Below, piece after piece: positions 10,410-55,858 of a DNA stretch of 64,000 nucleotides. Below the pieces are notes generated by a model. That model did no database searches. It saw nothing but the letters and a program-made list of their open reading frames with translations, and had not been told where the DNA came from. The stretch lies in assembly GCA_040285855.1 (NCBI GenBank), contig JAUFOQ010000017.1, positions 1,426,001 through 1,490,000 of the forward strand, given 5' to 3'. Each line of letters starts with the position of its first letter. Within the stretch, counting starts at the first letter, position 1. The DNA is from Eukaryota sp. GEM-RC1. Taxonomy: Eukaryota. The position numbers and the translations under genes are program-made.

Positions 10410-10454
10410 TTTAAGAGTCATCTGACTTTAAGAGTCATCTGACTTTAAGAGTCA
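10410..10454. repeat. 17-bp tandem/fold-back repeat (TTTAAGAGTCATCTGAC) at the 5' junction of the CRE element
   Basis: About 2.6 copies seen directly. Each unit is the TSD plus an inverted copy of adjacent target sequence. Confidence 0.85.
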
Positions 10455-11737
10455 GGATGTAACATTCTTCTTGGCCTATACTAAGCTGATTGAACACTTC
10501 TTTCCAAAGAGGAAGGTGTAAACGAATACTTTCCAGTTGGACTAGGAGATTCTTTTTCATCGGATTTCAGAGGCACTTCTAGTTCGAGAAGTCGTGAGAC
10601 TTCTGATTGATGACGTGGCAGGCGATGATTGACTGGTATTGTCCACCTTCCCCAATTCTTTTGAATACCACGCAATCAACTCTTGATTCTTCTGATTTTC
10701 TGTTTCTAAAGTTTCAATTTTTGTAGATAATTTTAAAATTTCATCTTTCTGCTCAGAACTTCTAGATCGCTCATTCATCAGATTTTCCTCTAACTCAGTG
10801 ATTCCACTATCTCTACTTCTCACAAGTTGCTCCAACTCTGAAACTCTTCCACGTGCTGCATTTATCTCTGATCGAACTCTCTCAAGACCATCGCTTTATC
10901 CTTGTAATCTAACATTTGCTTCAGTAATGGTTTCTCTAAATATCAGGTTTTCCTTTTCCAAGTGAGTTATCTGCTTTGTCAAGTCTTGCTTCTCTTCTGA
11001 AGAAAAAGACAGGGACTTTTGAGAACCAGAGAGATCGTCTTTAACTTCTTCCAACTAGGATCTAAGAGAACTTAATTGCGATAGAAGACATTCATTACTT
11101 TTGATTTTCTGCTTCCAAAGTTTCAATCTTTGTACATAATTTTAAAATTTAATCTTTCTGCTCAGAACTTCTAGATCGCTCATTCATCAGATTTTCCTCT
11201 AATTCAGTAATTTCACTATCTTTACTCCTCACAATTTGGTCCAACTCTGAAACTCTTCCCCGTGCTACATTTCTCTCTGATCGAACTCTCTCCAGACCAT
11301 CGCTATATCCTTGTAATCCAACATTTACTTCAGTAATGGTTTCTCTAAATATCAGGTTTTCCTTTTCCAAGTGAGTTATCTGCTTTGTCAAGTCTTGCTT
11401 CTCTTCTGAAGAAAAAGACAGTGACTTTTGAGAACCAGAGAGATCGTCTTTAACTTCTTCCAACTAGGATCTAAGAGAAGTTAATTGCGATAGAAGAGAT
11501 TCATTCTCGGTAGTTAACTTGGAGTTTAAAGCTTCTTTTTCAGACAGTTTGGCCTTTAATGATGCAGTTATTGAGCGTAGATCTTCGACACGTGTTTCTA
11601 AATCTAATTGGTGGCGTGATGAAGTGGCAATTTGATCGTTCAATCTTTGGATCGTATCAATACTTTTTTGATTAGAAGAGCTCAGGTGAATTTCCAATTG
11701 AGAGATCTGTCATTGAAGATCAAGAACAAGACTTTCC
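10445..11737 (-). pseudogene. SAS-6-like paralogue B, coiled-coil/C-terminal portion with internal tandem duplication
   Basis: Near-identical to 14105-14535 (inverted) and to part of the 26177-28606 copy. In-frame stops. The ~10710-11095 segment is repeated at ~11100-11500. Confidence 0.8.
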
Positions 11738-11880
11738 AAAGTATTCGTTTAGTCCTACGTCTTTAGAATTATGTCTGAATTCAGCTAAGTATAGGCCAAG
11801 AAGAATGATACGTTCTGATTCGTAGGATATTCTTGGAGTATATTGTGTGTTTTCATGGTTTCAATGTGAGTTGGAAATCA
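11736..11880 (+). pseudogene. 3' end fragment of SAS-6-like paralogue A
   Basis: Matches 18239-18380 (PKYSF.PTSLEL.LNSAKYRPRRM.RSDS stop plus 3' UTR), fused in opposite orientation to the paralogue B fragment. Confidence 0.85.
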
Positions 11881-13001: not shown

Positions 13002-13704
13002 TTTCAAACTACGCTATTCTCCTTAAATGACGTTACTAACATCAATTCTGAAAAACATTGAGAGCGTAATTAAATTTATATCAGCAAACAAAGTTTTAGA
13101 GATGAAAAGAGTTGACTTGTCAATGTCACTAATGTTTCTTGACTTTAAGCTAGTGAATAACTCAGCGCTCACTCCACTATAAGTATCAAGAAGCAATCTT
13201 TACTTTTTCAAGTCAATTAAGTTCAAGTGAATTTAATTTTTGTGTTAAACATTGTATTGAATTACGAATGTGAAAACAATGAGCCTGAAATTGGTTTTCG
13301 TGTATTTCCAATTCTTCTAATGCAGTATACTAACTGAACAATGGTCATTTTTAAAAAATAACCCACTATACAACTATATTACTATACAACTAACTTCTCG
13401 TTCAACTGGGTTGATTTTAGCAAAATTGAGTTTAGTACATTTATAAAAGAATGAGATATTAACAGAGCATTAATTCTGGAAACATTAGTCATACAAACAG
13501 TGTGCAAACTTATGTAAACAGATTTTAAAAGATTTGAACCACCTAGAAACAGCTGAAAAACGGAAAACGGATTTGTATTCCAAAGATGTTGCTAAACTCA
13601 ATCAAATTTTATATTGGTTCCATTTGCTATTTCTATTTTCAATAGTACTGTATTTTTGAAATGACATCTCAGTTTTTAACTCATTTTGGATCTATTTGTA
13701 AGTC

Positions 13705-14545
13705 CAACTATTGGAGTTTAACTTTGCTGATTTTGTTGATCAGATCAACGATCTGCTAATTGCTTGTTGAGGACCGAGATTCTCAACCTTATGTTGAGTT
13801 GGAACTCGGATCGACGTGTCAGCTTTCCTTTATGGGTCGATCTAAAGTTCGCCGTTTTCCTTTACTGTCACTGAATTTGACACGTGGCGAAGGTGCTGTT
13901 TTGGCAGAGTTCCTAGCAGGTAGACTGACTTGTACTACCAAAGATGCTGATGCCAATCAACACCAACTACTGGAACTCCAGCGAGAGTTGAAAAGTAGAA
14001 ACAAACAATACGACTCAATGGTTAACTCTTTCAAACAAGAAATAGACACTCTAAAGTCCAATCATGACACGTCTCTTCAGCAAAATTTTATCCAATTGTT
14101 AGAAAAGGAAAGTCTTGTTCTTGATCTTCAATGACAGATCTCTCAATTGGAAATTCACCTGAACTCTTCTAATCAAAAAAGTATTGATACGATCCAAAGA
14201 TTGAACGATCAAATTGCCACTTCATCACGCCAGCAATTAGATTTAGAAACACGTGTCGAAGATCTACGCTCAGTAACTGCATCATTAAAGGCCAAACTGT
14301 CTGAAAAAGAAGCTTTAAACTCCAAGTTAACTACCGAGAATGAATCTCTTCTATCGCAATTAAGTTCTCTTAGATCCTAGTTGGAAGAAGTTAAAGACGA
14401 TCTCTCTGGTTCTCAAAAGTCACTGTCTTTTTCTTCAGAAGAGAAGCAAGACTTGATAAAGCAGATAACTCACTTGGAAAAGGAAAACCTGTTATTCAGA
14501 GAAACCATTACTGAAGTAAATGTTGGATTACAAGGCTATTCTGAT
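13705..14545 (+). pseudogene. SAS-6-like paralogue B fragment (half of head domain plus coiled coil)
   Basis: LEFNFADFVDQI...LLSLNLTRGEGAVLAEFLAGRL followed by coiled coil. In-frame TGA and TAG are shared with the inverted copy at 11.1-11.7 kb. Confidence 0.82.
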
Positions 14546-16146: not shown

Positions 16147-16801
16147 CAGTCATCCGTGCCTTGAAATTACAGGAACCTTGAAATTATAGGATCTCTCTAT
16201 CTTCTCAACTACTTTCACTCATGATACTCTCTGTACCTAATAAAACACCAATTCTTCATTGTATTGCTTAGTCCTTCACATGGATCGCACTGATTCGATA
16301 AGTGTCCTTTTCTCGTTGATCTTGTCGTCCGCAAGGGTGTCAATGATGTCCTTTTCGGTGGAATTCATCAACGTAACGTGTAGAGCTGAGTTTGGCATGT
16401 TTCGGACCACGTTCAGCAAGATTTGCGGAAACGAGTACCCAACAATACTACCACAACAACGAAGAAGACGTTTGTGTTGTATAGTTATGTATTTTGGGAT
16501 GTAAGTGGAAGAATCCACCAGTTGAAACGCAGGCAAACGCGAAAACACGATTTATGACACACATAGTAACATCAAACTGACTCTATCAATCATCAGCATA
16601 GCTAGATTGTATTTAGGGAGTTATCAGAACACTAAAGGCTCGAAAACAGGAAATTCCATGTAGACTCATATCAACGTTTCAGAGGATGCACTTAAGTAGT
16701 TCTAGTGGCTGATAGCAGTTATATTAGAGAAAAGTTGTTGATGTTAGAGGTATCGGAAGGGTGTAACATTTTGGGACCTTGAAATTACAGGAACCTGACT
16801 G
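16147..16801. mobile_element. Probable degenerate pogo-like non-autonomous element
   Basis: TA-CAGTCA...TGACTG-TA ends with CCTTGAAATTACAGGA subterminal motifs at both ends. The left TIR is damaged. Confidence 0.5.
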
Positions 16802-16818
16802 TATTCGTCCTCTTTGTC

Positions 16819-18328
16819 ATGACCTTGCCCAAGATTCTGCTGCAATTCACCTTATCTTCTGTGACAATCAAGGCTTCTGCCGATCTTCCCCTTGTAGAAG
16901 GTCCCCTTGTAGTTCGTGTTTTACAACTTCAGCCGTCTCTTCTCCGGATCACAATCACAAGGGATCCACAAGTTGATCCCACTTTCTTCTACTTCTGTGA
17001 TCTTGACAGTCCTTCATTCTCCCTTCTCAAAGACGATCAGCGATTGGAATATGAGTTCGCCGATCTCGTGGACAAGCTCAAATTTCTATTGGCAGATTCT
17101 CAAGACCAACAATCTCCAAGATTTGCGCAGTTGAATTTTGACTCACCTTCTGCGTGTCGGTTTGCTTCTATGTGTAGAACCTCTTTTGTTTCTTACGTTG
17201 AGCTCTCCCTGAACTTAACACGTGGAACTGACTCTGATTTAATCGATTTCTTGGCTGGTAGATTGGCTTTCACCACCAAAGAAGTTGAAAGTTTAAAGAA
17301 TGAACTACTTGAACTGCAACTGGAGCTCAAAAGTAGAAGTAATCGTTTTGATTTAAAGTTGAGCTCATTTAAAGAAGAAATTTCAAGTCTGCAATTAACG
17401 TATGACACTTATCGTCAGCAAAGCTCTAATGAGTTATCAGAAAAGAAAGTCAGTCTCGTGACCTTCAATCACAGGTGTCTCGGTTAGAAACTGAGTTGAG
17501 CACTTCCAATCAAAAAAGCATTTGTATGATCAAATCATTGAATGAGCAACTATCTGATATGTCACGTCATCAATCAGAGTTGCAAACTCATGTTGATCAT
17601 CTACAATCTGATTCACTTTCTTTAACGTCCAAGTTGGCGGACGCAGACGCTTTGAACTGCAAATTAAACAATCAGAATCAAACTCTCCAGTCTCAATTAA
17701 CTTCTGTTAAGTCTAACTTAGAAGAAGCTGAAGCTAATCTGAATAGTTCTCAGGAATCCTTATCTTTTCGATAGAAGAAAACAAAAACTTGAAGAAACAG
17801 ATTTCCACCTTGGAAGATGAAAATGTATTATACAAAGATACAATTAAAGAAGCTAATGTTAGACTCATAGGTTATAGCGATGGACTTAACAGAGTTAGAT
17901 TTGAAAGAGGTGAAGTACGGTCTAGAGTGGCAGAACTTGAAAAGGAAGTTGCTCAAAATGAGATCAAAATCAACGAATTAGGGGATCTCTTGAAGACTCA
18001 ACAAGCGAAAAATTCAGAACAGGAAACCGAAATCTTTACATTACGTTCAAAAGTTCAAAAATTAGAAGATCATGCGCAATCGCAACAACAAGCTATAACT
18101 TGGTATTCGAAAGAACTTGGTAAATTGGATCAACCCAATCAAGGTCAGTCCTCCACGTCACCAATCAGAACTTCTCGAACTAGAAGTGTTTTTGGAGTTC
18201 CTTTGCATTTGGAGGAGAATGAATCTCCAAGTAAGTCCCCAAAGTATTCGTTTAATCCTACATCTTTAGAACTGAGTCTGAATTCAGCTAAGTATAGGCC
18301 AAGAAGAATGGTACGTTCTGATTCGTAG
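16819..18328 (+). CDS. SAS6: SAS-6-like centriole cartwheel protein, paralogue A (full length, two frameshifts at short homopolymers)
   Basis: N-terminal head with SAS-6/PISA-like pattern DP.FFYFCDL....F..LK.DQ.L..EF...  and LSL.L.RG.D..L..FLA, followed by a ~300-aa coiled coil and a Ser/Pro-rich tail. Frameshifts at ~17445 and ~17765. Confidence 0.8.
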
Positions 18329-18912
18329 GATGTTCACGGAGTTTATTGCTTATTTTTATGGTTTCCAATGTGAGTTGGAAAATGTCTTCTATGTATGTTT
18401 AGTTATCAATTTTAATTGTTTCTTTGTGGAGATTTCCCATGTACATTTATAAAAATATGTTCTTTCATTATCCAGACTAGTCAATCCAAGTGTAGTTCTA
18501 CTTTCTCTTTCATCGCTCATTTTTTGGTTTCTATAGTTTCTAAACCCAATGTCTTATAAATAATAGCAACTTTCACTACCTCTGTTTTCAAAAAATCACC
18601 AAGATATAACATGAAAACAACATCTTTGTATTACTAAAGCGAATCATGAATTGCGAAACAAAAAAACTAACAATGAAGATCCCATTGATAGACTGATATA
18701 TTGAACTATAACTTGTATGTTTTTTAATACAGTATTATTTAATAAGAGTTTATATGCAACAATAAATTAATACATACTAATTCAGAAAATGAAAGAAGTT
18801 AAATTCTCCACATCAAGACGAGAATTATGCCTATACAACTTCGAGTAAATGAAACATAAAAACTTGGGAATGCTTCTATAAAGAGCGAACATATTTCGAT
18901 TAATCCATACAG

Positions 18913-19229
18913 CTAATTATTTGAAGGAGTTGAAGATGACACTAATTCTAAAAAATCCTTAACTTTTTCGATAGAAGAAAACAGAAACTTGACGAAACAA
19001 ATTTCCACCTTAGAAGATCAAAATTAATTGTACAAAGATACAATTAAAGAAGCTAATTAGACTCATAGGTTATAGCGATGGCCTTAATAGAGTTAGATTT
19101 GAAAGAGGTGAAGTACGGTCTAGAGCGGCAGAGCTTGAGAAGGAAGTTGCTGATAATGAGATCAAAATCAACGAATTAGGGAATCTGATGATGGTTGAAC
19201 AATCGAAAAATCCAGAACAGGAAACCGAA
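18913..19229 (+). repeat. Left inner inverted repeat (SAS-6 A coiled-coil fragment)
   Basis: Reverse complement of 23335-23653 with both breakpoints shared. By eye about 16 substitutions and a 2-bp indel. Confidence 0.92.
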
Positions 19230-19713
19230 ATCTTCTATATATGTAAATGATCCATTTAAAGTTAGTAAATTTTTATCAATTGATTATCCCAATCTTGAAG
19301 AACTAGAAGCTATAGAAGTAAATCTTTATCATCTTCCTGATAAATTATTTAAATTAATAATAATTAATTGTTCATTTAATAATCTAGCGTATATTCCATA
19401 TTCTTATCAATTAAGGATTCTATCGTGTAAGGGAAATAATTTAACATCAATCAACTATTATGAAAATTTAGAAAAATTAGAATGTGATGGTAATTCATTG
19501 ACATCTATATGTCACTATCCTAAATTGATACACTTGAGTTGTAAATATAATAATATAAGAAATATTGCAAACATGGATAGTTTAAAGAAATTGGAATGTG
19601 ATTTTAATTCCCTATTATATTTAAATGACTACAAAAACTTGGAAGAATTATCATGTAAAGGAAATAAAGTATTAATTCCCGAAATGAAGAAATTAAAACA
19701 AATACGAAAATGA
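19230..19713 (+). CDS. Short-unit leucine-rich repeat protein, 5'-truncated
   Basis: ~20-aa repeats L..L.C..N.L..I (e.g. LEKLECDGNSLTSI). Confidence 0.85.
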
Positions 19714-19728
19714 TTATTAAGTTAATAA

Positions 19729-20760
19729 ATGTTAGTTGCATTCTGTGGTTTAGACTCTACAGGAAAATCAACTGTGGTTTCCCATTTAAATGGTCACAAG
19801 ATTAAACTACCAGATAGGAGAACAGATAGTGGTAAGATAATTGACAAATTCCTTAAAAAAGAAATTCAAATGTCTGAACGTGATGCTCAAATGTTATTTG
19901 CAAAAAACAGAAAAGAAAAGAATGACGAAATTAAGATTGAATTATTAGAACGAGAAATTGTTTTAATGGATAGATGTTGGATTGATGGTGTTGCTTATTC
20001 TCCTCCAGAATCTTTTTACTGGGCATTGAATCAAGCAGAAGGCGAATTAATTCCAGACTTGGTGTTTTATTTCACTGAACAGTATAATCGAGATGATTTT
20101 GGAAAAGAATACTATGACAAAATTAATGTTAGAAAATCATTTGAAAAAATATTTGATTTGATGAATATTGAAGTTATCAGAGTTCCTAGAGCACCTATCA
20201 AGGATGTTGTTTTCACAATTGAAAATCTCATCAATGAACGAAGTAATCAATTATTACAAGAATATGTTCGACTACAAAATATTAAAAGAAAAATCATTGG
20301 AATTGATATGGATGATACTTTATGTGAAACAACAAAACAAATAAGTAAGGATTATCCAGAATTCAAATATGAAACAGATCCAAGTAAATTCCACACTAAT
20401 GGAATAGAAGTATTCTCAACAAAAGGATTCTTTAAAAACTTGGAACCAATTAATAGAATAGTTGATATAACTAAAAAGTTAATTGATGATGAATTTGAAG
20501 TTTATTTCGTAACTGCTGCATATCACAAAATGATTGATTCTGGAATAAGAGAAGAAAAACAAGAATGGCTTGAACAACATTTTCCCGAATTAAATATTCC
20601 TAATCATTTGATTAATATCAATAACAAACAATTGTTAAAATTGGATTTATTAATTGATGATAATGATTGTTATCAATCTAATTACAAGTTTATTAATTCT
20701 AAAGATTTAGAATCATATGAACAAGTAATGAATATTCTATTCGATTGTAGATTTAATTGA
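19729..20760 (+). CDS. Thymidylate kinase fused to NT5C-type 5'(3')-deoxyribonucleotidase (HAD)
   Basis: N-terminal half: P-loop GLDSTGKST, PDR...G..I, MDR...GVAYS. C-terminal half: HAD motif IGIDMDDTL, FF.NL.P, K.EWL..HFP, LLIDD. Intact 343-aa ORF. Confidence 0.9.
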   Translation: MLVAFCGLDSTGKSTVVSHLNGHKIKLPDRRTDSGKIIDKFLKKEIQMSERDAQMLFAKNRKEKNDEIKIELLEREIVLMDRCWIDGVAYSPPESFYWALNQAEGELIPDLVFYFTEQYNRDDFGKEYYDKINVRKSFEKIFDLMNIEVIRVPRAPIKDVVFTIENLINERSNQLLQEYVRLQNIKRKIIGIDMDDTLCETTKQISKDYPEFKYETDPSKFHTNGIEVFSTKGFFKNLEPINRIVDITKKLIDDEFEVYFVTAAYHKMIDSGIREEKQEWLEQHFPELNIPNHLININNKQLLKLDLLIDDNDCYQSNYKFINSKDLESYEQVMNILFDCRFN

Positions 20761-20947
20761 TAAATAATTTTTTTTTTCTTAGGAAATGTCAATCGAGAAT
20801 GCAATAAATAATTTGTGGGATTATTTTCGAAATATAATGACAATACATTTATTTTTACCAGTTTCGAGAATTATATAAATTCAATCAAGTGTAGGAAAAA
20901 ATCTAAACAAGCAGCTATTGATATTTAAAAAAAAATAAAAATCTTTT

Positions 20948-21254
20948 TATCCAATATATATGAAACGAGATCTCCATGTATCTGGAGTTATTACCATGGT
21001 ATTTTTTCCATAATCTGCATTTTTTAAATTATACGTAATGATTGTTTTATTTTGTTTGGTAAAACCATAAAAATCATCAGTGAAAAAATGTGCATTATTT
21101 ATGTACAAGTATTGTAAGAATTTAGGGTTTGAGATATAAATATAGTCGTGGTCAGTTCTTTTGGTTTTGATAAGTATATGATAATGGGATTTGAATAATA
21201 TTTTAGAATTTCGTCAATTATATCATTGTTTCCATGAAGAATGCAAATAGTCAT
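20948..21254 (-). CDS. Small unknown protein, paralogue of 21283-21633 (one homopolymer frameshift)
   Basis: Manual translation MTICILHGNND...IYLSKP(K)RTDHDYIYISNP shares IYL..P.RTDH.YI.I..P and DDF.G with its neighbour. Confidence 0.6.
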
Positions 21255-21282
21255 TTTAATTTGCAAAATAATATGATATACA

Positions 21283-21633
21283 CTATTCTTCTGTTTCCTT
21301 TTCCAATTCTTTAATTATTTTATTGAATTCTTCAAATGTCTTGATTTTGGTTTTCTTTACTCCAAGTTTTAATTTTTCTCCTTTAAACATTTTATGTTTT
21401 ACTTCATTCTCGGTTACAATAACTTTTTTGCAATTTGTCAATCCCTCAAAATCATCATTGCCAAAAATGTAAACTGTATCTGATAACTTTAGAAAGTCAA
21501 TTAAATCTGGAGAAGTAATATGAATATATTGATGATCTGTTCTTGTTGGTGTTTTTAGATAAATTGGCAAAACAGAATCATTGATATATTCAATTCCTTC
21601 AGGAATATTTTCATAAAAGATAAGATAAAGCAT
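21283..21633 (-). CDS. Small unknown protein (~116 aa)
   Basis: Open frame from ATG 21633 (MLYLIFYENIP...) with a tandem paralogue downstream. Confidence 0.7.
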   Translation of the reverse strand: MLYLIFYENIPEGIEYINDSVLPIYLKTPTRTDHQYIHITSPDLIDFLKLSDTVYIFGNDDFEGLTNCKKVIVTENEVKHKMFKGEKLKLGVKKTKIKTFEEFNKIIKELEKETEE

Positions 21634-21682
21634 TTTAATTTCCAAAATACTTATATATATAAAAATGATTTTTCTTTTCGAA

Positions 21683-22973
21683 ATGGAGTGTATTGTATGC
21701 GTCTTAAAATTTACAAAAACTAGGCAAAAATTACTTGTCCTTGTGGAGCTGATATATGTAAAAAATGTGTCAAAGAATTTGAAAAGGAACAAGTGAAATT
21801 AACTTGTATGAGTTGTAAGAATGAATGGACTAATGTTTTTATCAAGGAACATTTTGGTAGTTTATTTTTGAGAAATAGATTAAGACAACAAATTGAACAT
21901 GAATTTGAATTCGAAAAACAACGTTTGCCAGATTTAGTTGAAGAGGCAAAATATAAGTTGGAACAAGAAAACTGCAAAAAGAATTGGATAAAACACACAA
22001 ACTTTCAACTCAATTAGATATTGATTATCATTGTGCAAAGTTTACTATCTTAGATTCTAATACTCCAATTGAAGAGAGAATTAAAGTTTTACAAGGATAT
22101 GATGAATTAAAACAAAAATTTATTAATACTCAAAAAGAACACGAACGTCTTGTTATAAAGTATCGTAGATTACAGCGTGAATATAGAATGATGACAACTG
22201 ATAACGTATCAGAATTTCAACATCCATGTAATGATTGCAATGGTTTTATTGTAGATGGAAAATGTGTAATGTGTGACAAATTATATTGCATGCATTGCTT
22301 GGAAGAAAAACAAAAGGAACATAAATACAATAAAGAAACTTTAGAGACTGTTAGATTGATTAAAAAATCAACTAAACCTTGCCCAAAGTGTAATGTTTTG
22401 ATTCAAAAAATCGATGGATGTAATCAAATGTGGTGTACAAAATGTCATACTACTTTTAATTGGAGTTCATTGGAAATTGTTAGAGGAACCACTCACAATC
22501 CACATTATTTTGAATACTTGAGAAATAATAATGTAGTAATTAGACCTCAACCAAATTGTATGACTATATATGATACTATTGACGCACAATATCGTTTGGA
22601 AGTATATAATGTTCGTGGAAATTATATTGCTGCTAGAACTGCGCCTTATTTAACAATTAATAAATTGGATCGCAATATCACTCATACCATTGGAACAACT
22701 ACAAATAATATAAGAGCTCAAAAGATTAAATACTTGCAAAATAAAATTAGCTTGGACGACTTAAAGGAGTATTATATCAAGAATCGTTTAAAGATAATGA
22801 TGTGGACTGAAATACAAACCTTGTGGGATATTATTAAAGATTTTATCCAAGGACAATTTGCTCAGGAAAGATATCGAGATAGTGTATACATGAATATAAT
22901 TAACGATGCTATTGCATTGTTTAATAAAGATATAGAACTTATTTGCTATAGATTTAATAAAAGAAAGCATTAA
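21683..22973 (+). CDS. RBR (RING-IBR) E3 ubiquitin ligase of giant-virus type, two homopolymer frameshifts
   Basis: MECIVC...ITCPCG..ICKKC...CMSCKNEW, then PCNDCNGF...C..C..YC..C, then TKPCPKC...IQKIDGCNQMWCTKCHTTFNW...HNPHYFEY. Confidence 0.88.
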
Positions 22974-22991
22974 AAGTTACAAATTTTACTA

Positions 22992-23303
22992 TTGGATAAA
23001 AATGAATTATTTTTTTTAAAAAAAATGTTACATTCTTCATCATTAACATCCAACATTTCAGAGTTGATAAAGTTGAAAAAGTATTCAGCTCAAAGACCTA
23101 TTGATAATGATTATGTAGAGAAATTATATAATGAAGCAATGAATTATTTGAAATATGAATCAGGACCATTAATTAGACAATCTATATCTATATGTGAAAT
23201 TGACAATGAATATTTTATCATTGATGGACAACATCGAATAGAATGCTTTAAAAAGTTACTTCAACATGGACATCCTGATTATCAAATAAGTGCTCCGATA
23301 TAA
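22992..23303 (+). CDS. DGQHR-motif (ParB/DndB-like) protein, apparently 3'-truncated
   Basis: QRPID...V..L and IIDGQHR motifs. Confidence 0.75.
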   Translation: MDKNELFFLKKMLHSSSLTSNISELIKLKKYSAQRPIDNDYVEKLYNEAMNYLKYESGPLIRQSISICEIDNEYFIIDGQHRIECFKKLLQHGHPDYQISAPI

Positions 23304-23334
23304 AAATCTATCTTCAAAAATCTAAAAATCAAAA

Positions 23335-23653
23335 TTCGGTTTCCTGTTCTGAATTTTTCGATTGTTCAACCATCAAGAGATCCCCTAATTCGTTGATTTT
23401 GATCTCATTTTCAGCAACTTCCTTTTCAAGTTCTGCCGCTCTAGACCGTACTTCACCTCTTTCAAATCTAACTCTATTAAGGCCATCGCTATAACCTATG
23501 AGTCTAACATTAGCTTCTTTAATTGTATCTTTGTATAATAAATTATGTTTTTCCAAGGTGGAAATATGTTTCGTCAAGTTTCTGTTTTCTTCTATCGAAA
23601 AAGTTAAGGATTTTTTAGAATTAGTGTTATCTTCAACTTCTTCAAATAATTAG
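23335..23653 (-). repeat. Right inner inverted repeat (SAS-6 A coiled-coil fragment)
   Basis: Inverted partner of 18913-19229. Confidence 0.92.
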
Positions 23654-24105
23654 TTAATAAAACAATCTCGATTAATATTGGAAGTACTGCTGAGGATTTT
23701 TGTTATGCCTCTTCAAAATTACATTGTGTCGTGATCAAAGGAACAGCTTTTTCAGACTCTTTGGCACATTCGCATTGCTGTTTCTTTATTAAGAAGTTTT
23801 CCAAAGTATTTGGATCGTATACTGAACAAATTGTATCGTGGTGAAATGAGTTGATGTTGGGCATTTACTATCCTTTAAGTACTGGTATATTAGTATGTGC
23901 GTGTATTTTCTTGATTTGTGTTTATACAATGTATAACTACAATGTATACAAATTGTTAACTTAAAAATCTCGATTAGGTTTTAATATATGTTTGCTATTA
24001 GTGTATTCAAATTTACAACTACTTCCAAATAACTCATTGTTGAGTGTATGAGCAGAGAAAAATAATACTTTTAAACAGCACATAAGTTATAGTTCAATAT
24101 ATCAG

Positions 24106-24253
24106 TCTATGAATGGGATCCTCTTTGTTATCTTTCCTTTTGTTTCGTTATCCATGATTCGCTTTACTGTATTAGAAAAATATATGCAGTCCTTTAAGAG
24201 AGTTTGTTATAAAGATGACGTGTTCATGTTATACCTCGGAGATTTATTGAAAA
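24106..24253 (+). repeat. 148-bp direct repeat, copy 1 (copy 2 at 25763-25910), flanking a CRE insertion
   Basis: Direct alignment shows about 5 mismatches. The homologous site at ~18585-18700 carries a single copy. Confidence 0.9.
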
Positions 24254-25762
24254 AAATTTACAAACCTTTACTTTTTATTGACAATCACACTACAGTGTAC
24301 ATACATCTAATAATCAATATCCTCAAAGTCCAGATTGCCTATCTGGAAATTCTCACCTACCTTATCCTCATAATGTCTGCCGAGAGATAATAAAGCGCTA
24401 GATACAGAAGTCACCATACCTATAAAGATAGCAAACACAATTCGACTTTTCCAAAATCCAAGATCAAAAGTCCTAGATGTTTTTTCTTTTACAATCTTCA
24501 CAACGATTTCAAGTAATGATGTTGCAGATCCACCTAAAGAACCGTACAGTGAAAATACAAAAGGGTACAACAAGTAATTCGAGTGTGAAGCCGAATTCAA
24601 TAATTTCAATTTAGCACAATATTTTTCTTAAGTTTTTCACCAATCAACAGAGGGTTTTCAGCCTTAGATTTAGCAAGTTTCTTGTTGGAGCCATTACAAA
24701 CGTCGATAGACATAACATCAGCAATAATGAAAGAGCCATCGAGACCAGGAAATATGACATCACCTCGGCTATTTCCAAACGATTTGTCAACATCTGTATC
24801 ATCAACCAACCCAGCCAAAACTGGTTCTAAAAAGGAAGTTATTCCATAAGATTTACACATACAATATAATTGATCCCTTACTGAATCATGAACATTACTT
24901 CTAAAAGAAATAAAACGGTTACAATTCAATAGATGTGCAGGTGTTACAGATTGCCCACATTGGCATTTCAAATTATGTGGAAGGTTATCAGGCCAAATAT
25001 ATGACCGTAAACGCATGTTTAATGACCGAGAGTTATCATCAAGAAAAAGACCGTAAACTTGAGGGATTTGAGTAATCAGACATGAAGCAGAGCTATTAGA
25101 AACTTCCGTTAAGAAATTTGCAAAAGCGGGATGTTTTTCCTTGACCAAGCCAAGTCGAACATTATAATCCAAGCTTTCAAAAATATTTGTAAGTTTATGT
25201 TGTAATTTTTTCAGACAGAACTGAAGATTAGTTAAACATCTTTCAGGTATTTCAGACACAGATTCTGGGAAACACTGAGACCAACCGTCAAAAGGTAATT
25301 TGATTAACGCTTCGTTTAAGTCAAATAAATATTTACATGAATTGGGGTTAATAAGTGAAATATCATTAGGAAATCGATTAACAAATTCAAAGATGAAATC
25401 TTTTCCGCCGCCTAAAAAAGCAGATTTGCAAAGAATTGATGATTTGGTAAAACCAATACCACCAAAATGAGCAGCAGTAAACAAATGACTTCTAAGTAAG
25501 GTTGAATCAACTTCTAACAATGAAGCAAAAAATTAATCCTCAACTCGTTAAAAGATCTACAAAAGTTCAGAGCGATTGAAGGAGCAGTAGATCTCAAAAG
25601 ATGTGTGATTTTTCCGGAGTAGCAAATTTTTAAAATAAAAAACTTGTTATGTTTTTCAATATCATATGAAGAAATTGTGTTGAGCTCTGAACCAATTTTG
25701 TCCAAACAATTAGATAATTCTTGAGAAATTTTAGGAACATTCCCAAGCCAACATCCTAGAAA
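24254..25762 (-). mobile_element. 5'-truncated CRE family F1 copy
   Basis: High identity to 1557-2944 plus 8252-8332. Encodes the zinc-finger/RLE C-terminus ending DFEDIDY. Confidence 0.92.
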
Positions 25763-26176
25763 TCTATGAATGGGATCCTCTTTGTTATCCTTTCTTTTGT
25801 TTCGTTATTCATGATTCGCTTTACTGTATTAGAAAAATATATGCAGTCCTTTAAGAGAGTTGGTTATAAAGATGACGTGTTCATGTTATATCTCGGAGAT
25901 TTATTGAAAATCGACGTAAGGAAAGATGCTGTCATTTTTAAACATCGGGTTTGACGCCAAATTCAGACACTATAGAAACCAAATAATGAGTGACGAAAAA
26001 GAATGTAAAACTACACTTGGATTGACTAGTCTGGATAATGAAAGAACATATTTTTATAAATGTACATGGGAAGTCTTCACAAAGAAACATGTAAAATTAA
26101 TAACTAAACATATATAGAAGACATTTTCCAACTGACATTGAAACCATAAAAATAAACAATAAATTCCAGGAACATC

Positions 26177-28606
26177 CTACGAATTAGAACGTACCATTCT
26201 TCTTGGCCTATACTTAGCTGAATTCAGACTTAGTTCTAAAGATGTAGGATTAAACGAATACTTTGGGGACTTACTTGGAGATTCATTCTCCTCCATTCAA
26301 GAAGTTCTGATTGGTGACGTGACGGACTTAGCTTGATTGAGTTGTTCCATTTTACCAAGCTCTTTCGAATACCATGTTATGGTTTGTTGTTGCATTTCAT
26401 TATTTTCTTCTAATTTTTCAATTTTTGAATGCAATGTTAAGATTTCGGTTTCCTGTTCTGAACTTTTCGATTGTTCAACCTTCAGGAGATCCCCTAATTC
26501 GTTAACTTTGGTCTCGTTTTTCTGCAACTTCGTTCTCAAGCTCTGCCGCTTTAGACCGTGCTTCCCCTCTTTCAAATCTAACTCTATTAAGGCCATCTCT
26601 ATAACCTATGAGTCTAACATTAGCTTCTTTAATTGTATCTTTGTACAATAGATTATGTTTTTCCAAGTTGGAAATCTGTTTCGTCAAGTTTTTGATTTCT
26701 TCTATCGAAAAGATAAGGATTCCTGAGAACTATTTAGATTAGCTTCAGCTTCTTCTAACCTAGACTTAACAGAAGTTAATTGAGACTGGAGGGTTTGATT
26801 CTGATTGTTAAATTTGCAGTTCAAAGCTTCTGCTTCTGTCAACTTGGAGGTTAAGGAAAGTGAATCAGATTGAAGATCATCAACACGTGTTTGCAACTCT
26901 GATTGATGACGTGACATATCAGATATTTGATCTTTTAACCTTTGGATCGTGTCGTTGATTCTTTGATTAGAAGAGCTCAGGTGAGTTTCCAATTGAGAGA
27001 TCTGTGATTGAAGATCAAGAACAAGACTTTCCTTTTCTGACAATTGTATAGAACTTTGCTGAAGAGACGTGTCATGATTGGACTTTAGAGTGTCAATTTC
27101 TTGTTTGAAAGAGTTAACCATTGAGTCATATTGTTTGTTTTTAGAGAAATTACCCTAAAACAAAGTTTTTCAAACCTGAGTTCCAAAAAAAAAGTTTCTG
27201 AAAACCCCGAAACATTGTCTTCATCATTTTTGCAAATCACCCTTAATCTTCAGAAAAGTCCCAGCACCATTGTGAAAGATGGATACTTTCAGCAACAGAT
27301 TGGAGCTTAAAGCTGCTTTATGCTGCTTGTGAATCAGAGGATGATCATCATCTCACAAAAACATATATTCCTCACTCTAAACGATGTATGGCCCCTTAAA
27401 GTGTCTTTTCCCTCTAAAGTTGCAGGTTTTGTTCTTCAAGAATATTTTCACACAGAGGGAATCACTTCGCTCGGTAAATTGTGCAAAACAAGCGTTATGA
27501 ATTCAACGTGGGAACGGGCAGATTCAATACAGAATCTTTGAACTCTTATGTGTGTTGAACTCACGTAAAAACACAGTATCTGGGTGCCATTCTTATTGCA
27601 ACATTGACAGGACATAAGAGAAAACGATGTCCCTAAAAAGATGGAGTCAGCTAGTTGTAGTTGGTATATGATGCGTTTTAGTGATATAAAAGACTTTTAT
27701 TTGCCAGAGCATAAGAAAAATAGGGGGCTGCAATCCCATCAACTCCATACTGCTCCCCTCACGATAAGGATGATAGTGTGAGAAAAGAGATGTAGAGGAG
27801 GGGAGATATATGTATAAACCCAATACTTCCCGATCTCTCTCCAATGATAAGACTGAAAGTGAAAGAAGCATGTTGTCAGGTGGTGTGATCTTAATGTGTG
27901 TCTCTCTAGAAGAGGTGGTACAAGATTTGTTGCATGTCGAACTTTATGGCCGATACGTAAACAGTACAAAGTTTGGAGAGGTTTGGAAACTTTGTTTTGG
28001 GGCAATCCTCCAAAAAAAACTTTGTTTTTGGGAAATAAAGGTTTGAGAAACTTTGTTTTTGGAACTCAGGTTTGAGAAACTTTGTTTTTGGGCGAAGTCT
28101 CTTGTTTTTACTTTTCAACTCTCGCTGAAGTTCCAGTAGTTGGTGTTGATTGTCTTCCACTTCTTTTGTAGTACAAATCAGTCTACCTGTCAGGAATTCT
28201 GCCAAAACAGCACCTTCGCCACGTGTCAAATTCAGTGACAGTAGAGGAAAACGGCGAACTTTAGATCGACCCATAAAGGAAAGCTGACACGTCGATCCGA
28301 GCTCCAACTCAACATAAGTTTTAGAATCTTGATCCTCACAAGCAATTAGCAGATCTTTGATCTGATCAACAAAATCAGCAAAGTTAAACTCCAAAAGTTG
28401 GTTTTCCTGAAGGAGGCCAAAAAAGAGTCAAGTTTGCAAAAGCACATAAACATGGGATCAACTTGAGGACCCCGAGTTATGACAAGGCGGATCGAACTGT
28501 CATCTTGTAGAAGGCGGACGATGAGAAGATCGGCAACAGAGGAACCTTCGCCTGAGGTTTTGACCGTACAAGTAGTCAAATTGCGTTCCAGAAGAATATT
28601 GGACAT
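26177..28606 (-). pseudogene. Chimeric SAS-6-like gene (paralogue B head, paralogue A tail) disrupted by a MULE insertion
   Basis: ATG 28606 MSNILLERNL...PQVDPMFMCFC...LEFNFADFVDQI. Sequence switches from B-type to A-type near 26930 and ends YRPRRMVRSNS. Confidence 0.82.
27144..28101. mobile_element. Non-autonomous Mutator-like element (958 bp)
   Basis: Perfect 9-bp TSD TTGTTTTTA (27135-27143, 28102-28110). Imperfect ~60-bp TIRs starting GAGA with AAAACAAAGTTTCTCAAACC sub-repeats. Removing it restores KSKNKQYDSMVNSF. Confidence 0.9.
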
Positions 28607-30360: not shown

Positions 30361-30432
30361 GGCCTCGGCCGGGAATTGAACCCGGGACCTCTCGCACCCT
30401 AAGCGAGAATCATACCCCTAGACTACCGAGGC
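30361..30432 (-). tRNA. tRNA-Pro (AGG)
   Basis: 72-nt cloverleaf with GCCTCGG/CCGAGGC acceptor stem, CTCGC-TT-AGG-GT-GCGAG anticodon arm, GGTTCAATTCC T-loop, followed by a TTTT Pol III terminator. Confidence 0.96.
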
Positions 30433-49926: not shown

Positions 49927-52130
49927 ATGAAAAACAACTCCAAGGGTCGAGTGTTTTCTGTGAAGAAGACTTCTTCCGTAAAAAAAGTTGAGGCCAAAGA
50001 CGCCAGAAGAAATAGAGCTGCTCAACTTCGGAAGCAGTCTCGTTTAGACCACATTACCCAAATGAGACACGGTTCATTGCCTCCACGTGTTGTAGCCATT
50101 ATATCCTTATCTTCTTCCATAGATACCCAATCTGTTGCTGATGATGTTCTTTCTCATTGTTCTGATATTCAGAGCCCTGGCATCGGTCATAAATCTGCTC
50201 TTTTCACTGACAAAAACAACGTCTCACAGTCTTACCCTGCAGTGATTCTATTGACAACATTCTTCACAACGCTTTAGTTGCTGACCTCCTTCTAGTCTGT
50301 GTCTCTGCCCATGGCATTGATCCCTCTGCTTCTTCTCTCATCAACCAACTCAAATACCAGGGGCTACCCACCCCCATCGTAACCCTCCATGATCTAGAAG
50401 CTTTCAATAGAAAGTCAATGCTACAACAAAAGAAATTCATTTCCACTCAACTTGAACAACTCTTTTGTCCTGCTGTACGTATCGTAACTCTCTCCCAGGA
50501 TCCCAAAGCAATGTCCAATGTTGTTAGATTCCTGCGGGATACCAAAGTGACTCAGTTCAATTGGAGACAGAATCGTTCTTATCTTTTGTGTGATTCAATG
50601 TCACGTGATGAGAGCAATCATTTAGTTTTGACCGGTTACGTTAGAGGAGCTCCATTATGTGCGGATCAGTTATTTTCGATTGTAGAAGGAGGCGATTACG
50701 TGATTGAATCAATCAAAACTGAAGTGGATCCACTTTTGATGAAGTTTAGTGAATGTGATGAAATGTCTGTTGAAATCTCAAGAAATCCCACCAAATGCGA
50801 CTCTTTGACTTTTGTTCGACCAGTTGATTGGACCGCAGGTGAACAGTCGTTGATTACTGAAGAAGAGCTCAACTCTGCTCCTACTACCATTGTCAAGGCC
50901 CCAAAAGGGTATAGTAGTTATCAAGCTTGTTGGATTAATGCAGATCACTCAGATGACGAGAGTGATCAAAGTGATTGTGATGATGACGTTGACGGTTTGA
51001 TTGAACTCGGATTACAGGCAGGTGATGACGTACCTGAACTCACTCAACATGTGGAGACTATGTGTGACCAATCAATTGACAATGATGATGACGTTTTCTC
51101 TGGTGATGATCAACCAGAAGAGGAAGTTATGTTTAAACCAAGAAGAGATGACGAGTTAGAGTTCCCTGAGGAGGTTGACACGGACCCTTCGATATCAGCT
51201 GAGATAGAATTTAAAAATTTCAGAGGTCTACAGTCGTTGCGAACCTCTCCGTGGGATCCTAAGGAGAATTTACCTAAGAATTACTCTCGAATATTTGCTG
51301 TCAATGATTACAAAGTTTTATCAAAGAAGTTGTCCAAGTTAAATCGTATCAATACAGAAGACAATATTGATATTGGCAGCTATGTTTCTGTCAAACTAGT
51401 CAATGTACCTCAAAACCTCGAGGAAAACTATTCAGCTCTTGGCCGTTGTCCTATTGGAGTTAACTTACTTAAAAACGAAGGGAAAATGACAATGGTTCAC
51501 TTATTAGTTAGAGTTGAAGGAGAAAAGGATGAAGTATTATTTAGTTCTTCTACTGAGATTGCCTTGAGATTTGGTTTTAGAAAGATGATTATTCATCCTT
51601 TATTTAGTGAGAAAATGGCTGGCTGTTCAAAATTAAAATATTCCAAAAAGATTTATGGTGGTAGGTCCTATGTTATGTCATTTTATGGACCTTTACTATT
51701 TAATCCATTGCCGTTTCTTGTCTATCATCAATCAAATTTCATTGGAAGCGGGTCTATTTATTCATGTGATCCGGATTTAATTATTCTTCAAAAAATTATT
51801 CTGACTGGATATCCAGTTAAAATTCACAAAAGTACAGCGACTGTGCGTTATATGTTCTTTAACAGAAGTGACATTATGTATTTTGCACCTGTAGGTTTGT
51901 GGACCAAGAATGGCTTATCTGGATCAATTCTAGGACCTGTTGGTACTCATGGAATTATGAAATGTCGTTTCTCAGGCATTATTAAAAATTCTGATACTGT
52001 TTGTATGTCTCTATTCAAACGTGTTTTTCCCACGTTTAATTCTCAAGTTGTTAGTTGTGTCGCTGAACCACTTAATATGGAGGCAGATGTGGTTGAAGAA
52101 GATTATCATCCATATGAACGTGTGGTTTGA
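49927..52130 (+). CDS. TSR1: Pre-rRNA processing protein TSR1 (one frameshift in an A run at ~50214)
   Basis: RRNRA.QLRK, WR..RSYL, GYVRG, S.YQA.W, FRGL.S.RTSPWDPKENLP..Y.RIF, GTHG.MKC.F and L.KRVFP motifs. Confidence 0.95.
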
Positions 52131-52830
52131 TCTAAGTTATTTTAGTTTATTTTTAGTCGTTTTTATTCTTTATAATTTTGAAATATTAAATTAAATTTCA
52201 GTATGGTGTTTTTGATTGATCATCTCATGATAAACCAATCTGAGAAAGAAGAAGACTTAAACTTCAATTTTAAAAATTGTATCTAAGTGAGTTAGGACAG
52301 ACATATTCACGGAAATTACTAGATGTGTTCAATTTGGGCCAGGATCAACATTAAATTTTGTCCAGTTATTTAAGGTGATTGAGTGGTGCGATTAATCATG
52401 ATGTCGTAACAATTCTTGATTAGTTGATATGGGGGATTAATCAATGAATAGAGAACCACTTCTATTTCCTAAATTGGAGAAGCAATCAATGCTTCGACAT
52501 CATCTCCACAATTAAACTAACAAATCATGGACGCAACAATGAGCGGTATACGACAATGCATTTCAAATATTAAAAGCAGGTTTACATCAAACAATTTGTT
52601 AAACGTATACCATATTCAAGTCAATAAACAGATTCACCTCAGTAGAATTGGGATACAATTCTGCGCTTGTTGTTCCTTATTACCAGAAGCTTCTTTTGAG
52701 TGTGGTGTATCGCGCTTTTAATACATTTCGCCTGAGTCTGCCTTTCTTACTAATATCATAAACAAAGGACCAATGAATTGAATTTAATTGCTGGAGAGAT
52801 AATTGAGAAATTTAATTTTACTTTTTTCCA

Positions 52831-55800
52831 ATGAGTGATACTATTGATGAAAGCCTGTATTCTCGCTCTCTCTATGTTCTTGGACACGAAGCTTTGAAGA
52901 GAATGTCAGAAACAGCTGTTTTAGTTTCTGGCATGTCCGGTGTTGGCGCAGAAGTCGCCAAGAACTTGATTCTCAGTGGCATGAAAGCTGTCACTATTCA
53001 TGATACGCAGAACGTGCAACCTCGAGATCTCGGTTCCAATTTCTACCTCACTGAAGACCACGTTGGATCCAACCGTGCTCTAGCTTGCTTCCCTCGCTTT
53101 AGAAGCCTCAATACATACGTGGAAGTCAATGCCATCACATGTACTCTCACGGAAGAGATTCTATCTCAGTTTTCTGTTGTAGTTCTCACTGACGTTGCTG
53201 AATCAGATCTCCTCAACATCTCCACCTTCTGTCACAATGCCGGCATCAAGTTCGTCCTTGCTGACTCCCGAGGTGTCACTGCCCGTCTCTTCTGTGACTT
53301 TGGTCCCTCCCACACCGTCCTAGACCCTGATGGTGAGCCTACCAACACCTTCGTCATCTCCAACATTGAGAAGGGTGACTCCTTCACCACCTTCTACCTA
53401 GCTGATGATCACGCTGAAAAGATCTCCTGGTCATCAGGTTCCACTGTCAAGCTCAATGGTCTCGTTGGCTTCCCCGAACTCAACGATGTTTCTGTTGAGA
53501 CTGAAGTCCTCTCTCCTTACACTTTCCGCGTCAACATTCCCACCATCAACAATCCTGCTGAGTTTAAAACTGGGTACGTCACGCCATCAAAGGAATCATC
53601 CACGATGGTATTTGAGCCCTATTCAATCCAAGCAAAGAAACCTGCCCTTAATGGCTATCTTGGCTCTACAATCGAACCTGAAGTCACCCACGTGATGTAT
53701 CTTGCCTTAGATCAATTCTATCAAATGCACTCACGACTTCCTAGGATTGACAGTCCAAGTGATCCTTCTGATGTCCTTTTAATGATGGACAACATTGTCA
53801 AATTAACTGGGCTTTCGATTTCTCTTGACAAGATTCGTGATAAGCTCATTAGATTGATTAGAATCTCTGCGTGCGTACTTTCTCCTATCAGTGCAATCAT
53901 TGGAGGTATTGCAGCTCAAGAAGTCCTCAAGGCTTGCTCTGGAAAGTTTTCTCCCTTCCACCAGTTCTTTTACTATGATGCTTATGAAGTGTTACCTAAC
54001 GAAGACGTAGCTATTGAAGAACGTATGCCAATGCTCTCCAGATATGATGATCAGATTGTGATATTTGGTAGAGAACTTCAAAAACTCTTCCAAACTAAGT
54101 CTCTCTTTGTTGTTGGTGCTGGAGCCATTGGCTGTGAGGTACTTAAATCTGTTGCTCTAATGGGAGTTTCTTGTTCTAACAACGCTAAGACTGTGGTTAC
54201 TGACATGGACATTATTGAAAAGAGTAACCTGAATAGGCAGTTCTTGTTTACCTATGACGATATTCACAAACCAAAATCAGAAGTTGCCGCCAAAGCAGTC
54301 AAAACAATGAATAGAGATCTCTCAATCACTGCTACTCAGATTGCAGTCGGACCTGAAACTGAAGAAGTTTATAACGACGAGTTCTTTTCAACTGTTGACG
54401 TGATCATCAATGCCCTTGATAATATTGAAGCTAGAATGTTCATGGACTCCAAGGCTGTGTATTACTGTAAACCTCTAGTTGAAAGTGGAACTCTAGGTAC
54501 TAAAGGTAATGTACAGGTAGTTATTCCTCACCTTACCAAGAGTTATGGTGAATCTCAAGATCCACCTGAGAAGTCTGTTCCAATGTGTACCATTAAGAAC
54601 TTCCCTTATCAAATTGAGCATACAATCGAGTGGGCACGACAGTATTTTGAAGAGACTTTTACAAATGCAGTTACGGATGCTGCAAGATATTTGAAAAATC
54701 CTGAATTTTTAAATACTTTGAAAAGGACGGTCCCAGTCAATCACTACCCACACTCAAGAACATCCACTACTATCTAAAAGAGATCGTACCTTCCTCTTTT
54801 GAAGATTGTATCAAATGGTCTCGATTGAAGTTCGAAGAGCTCTTCAATCACCAAATCAAGCAACTCCTGTACATGTTCCCAGCAGACATGATTACTGATG
54901 CAGGAACCCCTTTCTGGTCTGGATCAAAAGAGCTCCCAGACCGATTGATTTTGACCCTACTGATAAGGATCACGTTAACTTCGTCTTTTACGGAGCTAAA
55001 CTCTTGGCAGAAGTCTATGGAATTCAACCCATCATGGACCCTAACTTTGTCATTTCCAACGCTCTCGCTGTCCATGTGCCTGAGTTTGTCCCTTCTTCTA
55101 ATGTTCAAATTGACACTGATGAGAAGGTGGAGGAGAAGCCATCAATCTCTCAAGAAGGCCCATCAGTCGATGAGTTGATCTCTTCTATTCCCAATCACCA
55201 ATCACTTACCAATATCTCTATTTCCCCAGTTGATTTGGATAAAGATAAGGATGAACTCGGTCATATGGACTTAATCACGGCTTGCTCAAACCTTCGGGCT
55301 ACTAATTATTACATTCCCACCGCTGACAAGCATCGTACTAGAGGAATTGCTGGCAAGATTGTCCCTGCAATGGTTACCACCACTGCTTTAGTTGTGGGAA
55401 TGGTCTCAATTGAGTTGTTGAAGTTGTTACAAGAAAAGAACGATATCGAAGCTTATTGTGATTCTTTCTTGAACTTAGCTTTGCCTTTCATTGCAAGATC
55501 TTCTCCTGAAACAGCTCCAACAACTGATATGATGGGAAAGAAGTTTACTGTCTGGGATAAGCTTTACTTTGATTGTGGCGACGTCACTCTTGGAGAATTC
55601 ATTGACCTCTTCCAAAAGACTTACAAGTTGTCTGTGTGTATGTTGACCATTGGAAAGTACATGGTTTTCTCCGAATGGCCTTCTAATAAAGCTCTTCAAG
55701 AAAGAAGACTTCAAACTCCATTGTCTAAAGTAGTTGAGGAATTCCAGAAGAAGCCTCTGCCCCCAGGTACAATGTTTGTTAATTTAGTAGTACTTGCTTT

Positions 55801-55858
55801 TGATGAAGTCTCTGGTGATGACGTGGAATGTCCACCTGTACAGATCAAAATAAGATAA
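52831..55858 (+). CDS. UBA1: Ubiquitin-activating enzyme E1 (two frameshifts in A runs at ~54722 and ~54928)
   Basis: [45 protein letters not shown], catalytic PMCT.KNFP and [13 protein letters not shown] motifs. Confidence 0.97.

Follow-up and report, generated by a model that had tools for sequence, protein, structure and literature searches.

Eukaryota sp. GEM-RC1 carries, on a 1.84-Mb contig, a short block of giant-virus-like genes between two mirrored arms that contain pieces of the centriole gene SAS-6. We analysed this locus in a stretch of 64,000 nucleotides (GenBank assembly GCA_040285855.1, contig JAUFOQ010000017.1, positions 1,426,001 to 1,490,000), which is called the window here; all coordinates are those of the window (Table 1). 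The AT-rich block between the arms is called the core. On balance, the evidence favours the view that the core is a young fragment of a divergent Nucleocytoviricota-like genome, which was inserted by host break repair at the centre of an older host inverted duplication, and that SAS-6 is a bystander. It is unlikely that a virus used or captured the centriole gene.

The window is eukaryotic. Its last third contains intron-poor genes for TSR1, UBA1, TRAPP, BART, RMI1 and others, and transposon remnants crowd its first 40 kb. The closest named relatives of its proteins come from Eukaryota sp. TZLM1-RC and TZLM3-RCL, which are probably Skoliomonas metamonads. The host group presumably consists of anaerobic flagellates of the metamonad type.

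Table 1. Features of the locus and of a reference region in the window, in order of position.
Feature	Position	Strand	Remarks
SAS-6 piece G	10446..11097	-	type 2; stops in frame; covers coiled coil and tail; in tandem with F
SAS-6 piece F	11098..11737	-	type 2, stops; inverted partner of E
SAS-6 piece H	11736..11877	+	type 1 tail and 3' flank; inversion junction joins H to F
SAS-6 piece E	13704..14539	+	type 2, partial head and coiled coil, stops
SAS-6 copy A	16819..18328	+	full length; free of in-frame stops; two frameshifts of one base, at homopolymer runs
SAS-6 3' flank	18329..18545	+	mirror at 25962-26176, 196/215 bases (91%)
Decayed non-LTR (long terminal repeat) retrotransposon piece 1, left arm	18580..18740	-	reverse transcriptase domain motifs; 85% to mirror
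Decayed non-LTR retrotransposon piece 2, left arm	18747..18912	-	C-terminal end; 70% to mirror
Inner SAS-6 fragment B	18913..19234	+	coiled coil only; one stop, one 2-nt deletion
Giant-virus-like AT-rich core	19235..23334	.	4.1 kb, 26% GC, 95% coding, seven genes
LRR protein	19247..19713	+	one frameshift near start
dTMP kinase-NT5C (5'-deoxyribonucleotidase) fusion	19729..20760	+	343 amino acids, intact
Possible small open reading frame (ORF)	20786..20928	+	one frameshift
Uncharacterised gene, paralogue of neighbour 21283..21633	20947..21254	-	one frameshift
Uncharacterised 116-residue gene	21283..21633	-	
Giant-virus-type RBR (RING-IBR-RING) E3 ligase, predicted	21683..22973	+	full length, two frameshifts
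DGQHR/ParB-like gene	23025..23334	+	stop at 23301; cut at right junction
Inner SAS-6 fragment C	23335..23653	-	coiled coil only
Retrotransposon piece 2, right arm	23654..24059	+	decayed; extends past left mirror on either side
Retrotransposon piece 1, right arm	24060..24253	+	decayed
Younger non-LTR retrotransposon, right arm only	24254..25762	-	5'-truncated; 96% identical to copy at 1527-2945
148-bp direct duplicate of 24106-24253	25763..25910	+	143/148 bases; flanks younger retrotransposon
SAS-6 copy D, 3' part	26177..27143	-	type 2 to type 1 switch near 26950
Insertion in copy D	27144..28101	.	about 960 bp, 51-bp inverted ends
SAS-6 copy D, 5' part	28102..28606	-	type 2 head, frameshifted
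TSR1 and UBA1 region	49927..55858		both split by one-base frameshifts at homopolymer runs

SAS-6 pieces in the window

SAS-6 sequence lies in eight pieces spread over 18 kb (10446-28606). The first-pass annotation had described the pieces in 16819-28606, and four further ones (G, F, H and E) lie at 10446-14539. Copy A is probably the live host SAS-6 gene. Its head matches the Pfam family SAS-6_N (PF16531; E 7.5e-10, 39.5 bits against a cut-off of 25), and the copy also matches solved SAS-6 chains in PDB. In a tblastn alignment, it is collinear over its full length with residues 2-498 of a 499-residue TZLM1-RC protein, an orthologue with 42% identity. These results confirm the SAS-6 identity that had been proposed. 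A search of a protein library consisting of 50%-identity representatives, in which close paralogues are hidden, matched 15 proteins, including one from each named relative; 10 of these proteins were then looked up.

At least three SAS-6 sequence types are present in the window. Type 1 comprises A, H, the 3' part of D and most of B and C, and type 2 comprises E, F, G and the 5' part of D; the two types are about 55-73% alike. The head of type 2 is ~45% identical to that of type 1 and differs in the loop preceding the last head strand, where the dimerisation phenylalanine of SAS-6 presumably lies. The third type is the first ~55 nt (5' segment) of the inner fragments B and C. This segment is 96% identical between B and C and 64-68% identical to A, D and F. 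It was also considered as retrotransposon sequence, and its best reading is SAS-6. Past this segment, A, B, C and D diverge as a star, with 9 private changes in A, 8 in B, none in C and 14 in D. B and C have no head domain. Codon-wise rates among the SAS-6 pieces were too noisy for dating.

Copy D is a chimera of two paralogues. In 75-nt windows it is 81-99% like E until the position that corresponds to ~17520 in A, and 79-100% like A past that point. Its head is partial and scores 22.5 bits, which is under the Pfam cut-off. A second inverted pair consists of the SAS-6 pieces F and E, in which 425 of 433 bases are identical (98%). Transposon remnants lie between F and E, and no virus-like genes were detected there.

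Two elements of ~950 bp with inverted ends lie inside or between SAS-6 pieces, at 27144-28101 and at about 12073-13009. The latter carries hAT-like remnants.

The mirrored arms

The arms mirror each other from the inner fragments out to about 17530 and 26950, as had been claimed for an inverted duplication. B (18913-19229) and C (23335-23653) are identical at 301 of 317 aligned bases (95%). Outward of the retrotransposon pieces and the 3' flank, the SAS-6 tail is 98% identical between the arms, and the coiled coil is 90, 88 and 83% identical by segment. The outer end of the mirror coincides with the paralogue switch in copy D.

The stretch that adjoins B on its outer side, piece 2, had been called a diverged spacer. 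This description does not hold: the stretch is the decayed 3' end of a non-LTR retrotransposon, and it too is mirror-homologous. The mirror alignment of piece 2 is collinear (110/158 bases), and none of 500 dinucleotide shuffles reached its score under any of three scoring schemes. Its translation is that of the C-terminal end of the non-LTR elements of the window. Since piece 2 aligns in mirror orientation and reads as such an element, the arms are host chromosome throughout. Two later insertions, the younger retrotransposon and the ~960-bp insertion in copy D, occur in the right arm only.

The 148-bp duplication that flanks the younger retrotransposon would be an unusually long target-site duplication, if it is one. 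Site-specific targeting of SAS-6 by these retrotransposons was considered and rejected, as other copies of the element lie at 38762 and 46458, far from SAS-6.

The earlier suggestion of a virus that took SAS-6 up into its terminal repeats finds no support in the make-up of the arms. They continue into host flank, retrotransposon remnants and a chimeric host gene, with no viral make-up, and the SAS-6 pieces next to the core are headless. Furthermore, the arms are not nearly identical, as viral terminal inverted repeats would be; they are 70-98% alike by segment, with private insertions in one arm.

Composition and genes of the core

The AT-rich 4.1-kb core that the first-pass annotation had pointed out is real. 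Its GC content is 26.1%, against 36.9% in the rest of the window, and local change-points of GC content were found at 19228 and 23337. GC content at third codon positions is 0.17-0.24 in core genes and 0.29-0.44 in 10 host genes. The genes are intron-less and densely packed, with 15-51 nt between them, and the shift in composition is sharp. There is no second copy of the core within the window.

The LRR, dTMP kinase, NT5C, RBR and DGQHR-type genes named earlier are all present, although the DGQHR match is weaker than the curated cut-off. Both outer genes had been described as cut off at the junctions, and this is right for one of them. The DGQHR gene encodes 92 residues against 339 in a viral locus, L029, and is therefore cut. 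The LRR gene is probably complete: it has its own ATG at 19247, 12 nt inside the junction, in an A-rich context as in other core genes. No viral hallmark genes (capsid, PolB, packaging ATPase, RNA polymerase) were found in the core ORFs or in 27 other scanned ORFs of the window.

The fusion gene pairs a dTMP kinase with a 5'(3')-deoxyribonucleotidase, two activities that are predicted to act on dTMP in opposite directions. The tandem paralogous pair at 20947-21633 shows 32% identity and a common TxRTDHxYIxI motif, and no relatives of it were found. For the 116-residue protein, 0 of 68 viral stretches matched, Pfam and PDB gave nothing significant, there was no usable Atlas match, and its structure model has a mean predicted local distance difference test score of 35.6.

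Relatives of the core genes

The RBR gene gives the clearest viral signal. Among motif-matched stretches in viral contigs, 76 of 80 were confirmed as relatives, many of them in giant-virus bins, and 863 of 1585 candidates in a protein collection matched. The best 120 of these 863 matches include an iridovirus protein and no named eukaryote, and ten cluster look-ups added a Bathycoccus virus. The best metagenomic match scores 139 bits, against 37.7 for the best solved cellular RBR. In the viral locus L029, an RBR of the same architecture lies near a DGQHR gene and an LRR gene. The giant-virus derivation of the core that had been proposed is thus supported, mainly by the RBR gene, the base composition and the gene packing.

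For the fusion, one homologue was found among 1935 candidates of 188-601 residues. It is P9112_013379 of TZLM1-RC, which is 50% identical and lies on a different contig from the SAS-6 gene of that organism (4.04 and 6.91 Mb). In further searches, none of 24 stretches in viral contigs was related to the fusion as a single query; an alignment query gave 4 of 224, in the kinase part only, and another search gave the same four contigs (4/162). Metagenome contigs gave 0 of 169, prokaryote genomes 1 of 183 (kinase part) and viral records 1 of 11. The NT5C part has weak matches in 9 Lak phages. A thymidylate kinase on a contig of a Nanoarchaeota metagenome-assembled genome (L085) also matches the core kinase, with 32% identity over 89 residues; this contig is possibly misbinned viral or eukaryotic DNA. 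No report of a fusion of dTMP kinase and nucleotidase in giant viruses was found in the literature searched, which left most subscription papers outside. The fusion is a possible marker of a virus lineage in these flagellates.

These data also bear on the idea that the core is not viral at all, being instead a host or horizontally acquired gene island around a lineage-specific fusion. The sole full-length homologue of the fusion does come from a related protist, at a distance like that of the SAS-6 orthologue, and the kinase scores best to cellular enzymes. The viral matches of the DGQHR and LRR genes are weak (for DGQHR, 0 of 21 stretches and 0 of 42 longer candidates in viral contigs), the uncharacterised pair has no strong viral match, and the frames are intact, as they would be under selection. 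However, the RBR is of the viral type, and 15-51-nt gaps with a gene cut at a junction are unlike a settled host locus. Moreover, AT-coded residues are favoured in P9112_013379 as strongly as in the core, with a FYMINK value of 0.40 against 0.23 for TZLM1-RC SAS-6. We therefore regard a non-viral core as very unlikely.

Junctions between core and arms

The inner fragments had been described as having identical ends. When mapped on intact SAS-6, the inner ends are no more than 5 nt apart but not exactly the same, as the match of B to SAS-6 extends for up to 5 nt more, as far as 19234. If a 1.5-kb gene were cut twice independently, inner ends this symmetric would arise with a chance of about 0.7%. 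The symmetry therefore points to one centre. B and C also share the outer end that had been reported. This end adjoins different points of the retrotransposon remnants in the two arms, and the left arm is without about 100 nt.

A and D carry the breakpoint site uncut. No special fold was seen at the junctions (z 0.37 and -0.09), and the fragment ends, as read from the sequence, showed no target-site duplication. One candidate, a 9-mer present on both sides, was rejected because its copies lie 8 and about 13 nt away from the ends and there is an overlap with a short palindrome.

The junctions could be taken to mean that SAS-6 has an active role. A virus or derived element would then cut or recombine at a SAS-6 site, or would have the 317-bp piece as its terminal repeats, and B, core and C together would be a deleted derivative. 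We give this explanation little credence. It would account for the coinciding inner ends, for the ~55-nt 5' segment of B and C, which is unseen in the other aligned copies, and for the fact that B and C are more alike than the adjoining retrotransposon remnants (95% vs 70%). However, the mirror goes on outward through those host remnants, the same site is uncut in A and D, and homologous docking via a circle leaves direct repeats, not the inverted ones that are seen. The core ORFs include no detected integrase, transposase, polymerase (protein-primed polymerase included) or capsid gene, although a non-autonomous derivative would still fit with the lack of the polymerase, integrase and transposase. 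The fusion gene is apparently single-copy, as its protein cluster has one member on one contig. Nor was SAS-6 found in viral data, in tests that are all weak: none of 61 motif-matched stretches in viral contigs contained it, nor did any of 11 viral records (with no positive control), and a B/C motif had no exact match in viral contigs. Another B/C motif had no exact match in metagenome contigs. A more specific form of this idea, in which a giant virus of anaerobic flagellates integrates at, or has as its ends, a fixed SAS-6 coiled-coil site, and repeated cutting drove the amplification and shuffling of SAS-6 with B, core and C as a remnant, seems similarly improbable. The earlier proposal that SAS-6 repeats trap viral DNA survives weakly, in that an inverted repeat, by chance one of SAS-6 sequence, probably broke at its centre and acquired foreign DNA; nothing found indicates a specific SAS-6 dock. 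We consider a one-off host inversion, which the first-pass annotation had named as a refuting case, the likeliest origin of the layout.

Age of the core

The open frames of the core (3,693 nt) contain no internal stops, against 4.0-6.2 expected at half the divergence of B and C (P 0.002-0.018). Therefore, the core is probably younger than the arms. This dating is suggestive only because the stretches were defined by us, the small ORF was omitted and B and C are not clock-like.

The frameshifts of the core could be taken as proof of decay. This was rejected, since frameshifts of the same class occur in the host genes UBA1 and TSR1. All five in the core and both in copy A are one base short; in the host genes, three of five splits are one base short (UBA1 twice, TSR1) and two are one base long. 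Thus, the core frameshifts are probably consensus errors. The TSR1 and UBA1 splits at homopolymer runs also mean that apparent pseudogenes in this assembly are not to be taken at face value. Published assemblies of the host group were made from Nanopore reads polished with Illumina reads, which may not hold for this window.

The main rival of a late insertion is a single event, in which a break in fragment B was followed by replication and the sister ends were joined via viral DNA. The mirror and the core would then be of the same age, and the arms would have diverged later by patchy conversion with other SAS-6 copies. This gives a direct account of the symmetric inner ends and makes a long-lived palindrome unnecessary. 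The chimeric D fits the rescue of a dicentric, and the differences between B and C are not clock-like. However, the core lacks the nonsense changes that would be expected from the 10 private changes of B in 317 nt, and the non-coding mirror pieces, which are just 70-85% alike, look far older than the intact core. A single event is thus unlikely, though it deserves to be kept in view.

A proposed course of events

The locus has the features of a foldback at a palindrome centre, namely the same inner breakpoint (within 5 nt) and an outer end at paralogue homology. That the inner ends are symmetric, that the arms are host DNA and that D is chimeric is shown by the sequence; the following order and repair route are inferred. 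A break in a partial SAS-6 duplicate would have led, by fold-back or sister-chromatid fusion, to the mirror. Recombination with a type-2 SAS-6 paralogue may then have rescued the far end, giving the chimeric D. Later, the hairpin-prone centre would have suffered a break or the loss of its loop, and a linear piece of DNA from an infecting virus may have been ligated there as filler, which would have cut the DGQHR gene. The resulting 4-kb spacer may now stabilise the repeat. On this view, the core could neither move nor give rise to virus.

Several points weigh against this late insertion of viral filler. A near-perfect palindrome should be short-lived, and the 5% divergence of B and C would need a former spacer that was later removed cleanly. 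The patchwork of 70-98% identity needs conversion events that are unseen. Over the 317 nt, B has 10 private changes and C has none (P 0.002), which is not clock-like and therefore suggests gene conversion or polishing with multi-mapped reads. The stop count loses strength when the DGQHR stop is counted (P 0.015-0.09) or when the low end of the divergence interval is taken (2.3-3.6 stops expected, P 0.03-0.10), and it was made on open stretches that we chose between frameshifts, with the small ORF left out. The strong viral signal comes from the RBR only. In a FastTree tree (118 rows, 416 columns, without a labelled cellular outgroup), the RBR is an unsupported long branch; therefore, we assign it to no viral order. 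For the kinase part of the fusion, the best solved cellular dTMP kinase scores 84 bits, more than the 49-58 bits of the four viral kinases that were retrieved, which had been picked by motif.

Finally, the joins between core and host are known from the assembly sequence alone. This leaves room for a misassembly, in which a co-cultured virus or another low-GC contig was spliced into the repeat-rich host contig. The region is indeed rich in repeats, its uncorrected one-base errors indicate imperfect polishing, and C has no private variants. On the other hand, two chimeric joins would be needed at the same SAS-6 position, and the window holds no second copy of the core. A read fold-back artefact would not give arms that are 2-30% different and have private insertions. 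Because of these mutations and insertions, we judge misassembly to be very unlikely.

Comparison with known systems

The late-insertion reading has parallels in three kinds of locus. In Acanthamoeba, partial and immobile giant-virus insertions have been described (PMC12210455). As there, the core would be part of a larger virus, has no detected mobility genes, shows an abrupt GC shift and lies in a rearranged region with host mobile elements. Unlike those insertions, whose borders are reported without an obvious match to inverted repeats (PMC12210455), the core occupies the middle of an inverted duplication in its host; it also looks undecayed, and the host is a metamonad-type flagellate. At the human Xq27.1 palindrome, chromosomal DNA enters by break repair (PMC9233990). 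Both cases place unrelated DNA near the centre of a hairpin-forming inverted repeat via break repair. At Xq27.1, however, the filler is chromosomal and recurs across families, whereas here it is virus-like and single, and the arms are diverged and kilobases long (PMC9233990). In yeast, foldback inverted duplications have their far ends at dispersed repeats or at members of gene families (PMC10622511). The chimeric copy D resembles them in that its far end would have been fixed by repeat or gene-family recombination. Foreign filler at the centre is not mentioned in the part of that report consulted, and the 4.1-kb spacer would need an extra capture step (PMC10622511).

Two kinds of viral system are also similar in part. 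Giant endogenous or latent viruses, such as the Chlamydomonas punuivirus and those of Euglena and Ectocarpus, likewise bring Nucleocytoviricota-type genes into a host chromosome. As far as their descriptions go, such viruses are of a much greater size (617 kb in Chlamydomonas), and some of them reactivate, unlike the 4.1 kb of accessory genes found here. Terminal inverted repeats are known from poxviruses and asfarviruses.

Egoviruses have terminal inverted repeats of 55 bp (10.1101/2024.03.23.586382). In such linear nucleocytovirus genomes, as here, inverted arms surround viral genes. The arms of our locus differ in being internal to the 1.84-Mb contig, 70-98% alike, and made of a host gene and retrotransposon remnants (10.1101/2024.03.23.586382). 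The main text of that preprint, as available, does not name the host genus. The locus fails as a viral terminal repeat, as a large latent element and as an autonomous transposon of the TIR, Pack-MULE or Polinton-like kinds.

In the same literature, no link between viruses and SAS-6 was found, and no listed title was on point for SAS-6 paralogues in metamonads. The main text of the genome paper of the host group does not contain the words 'virus', 'viral' or 'NCLDV'.

How the DNA of integrase-less giant viruses enters protist chromosomes is an open question. The locus offers a testable route, in which a host inverted repeat captures the viral DNA at its centre; in the assembly, both junctions can be placed to within a few bases, and the insert is apparently young. 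It would also be the trace that a deeply divergent lineage of giant viruses left in a flagellate relative of TZLM1-RC, with the fusion present in just two genomes among the 188-601-residue proteins searched.

Other features of the window

The region 1516-10445 is probably a single full-length non-LTR retrotransposon, which is interrupted by a nested 5.3-kb block (2946-8251) with an 8-bp duplication. Within this block lie a gag flanked by LTRs (3588-4686) and a transposase of the hAT-like kind (6805-7980). The 5' end of the retrotransposon meets the end of SAS-6 piece G via an 18-bp tandem repeat. A 600-residue acidic cysteine-containing protein with an internal repeat of ~155 residues and no Pfam match is encoded at 56307-58109. 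A gene that combines BTB with RCC1 repeats lies at 36039-37785 and contains near-identical tandem units of 144 bp. A tRNA-Pro(AGG) gene is located at 30361-30432 on the minus strand.

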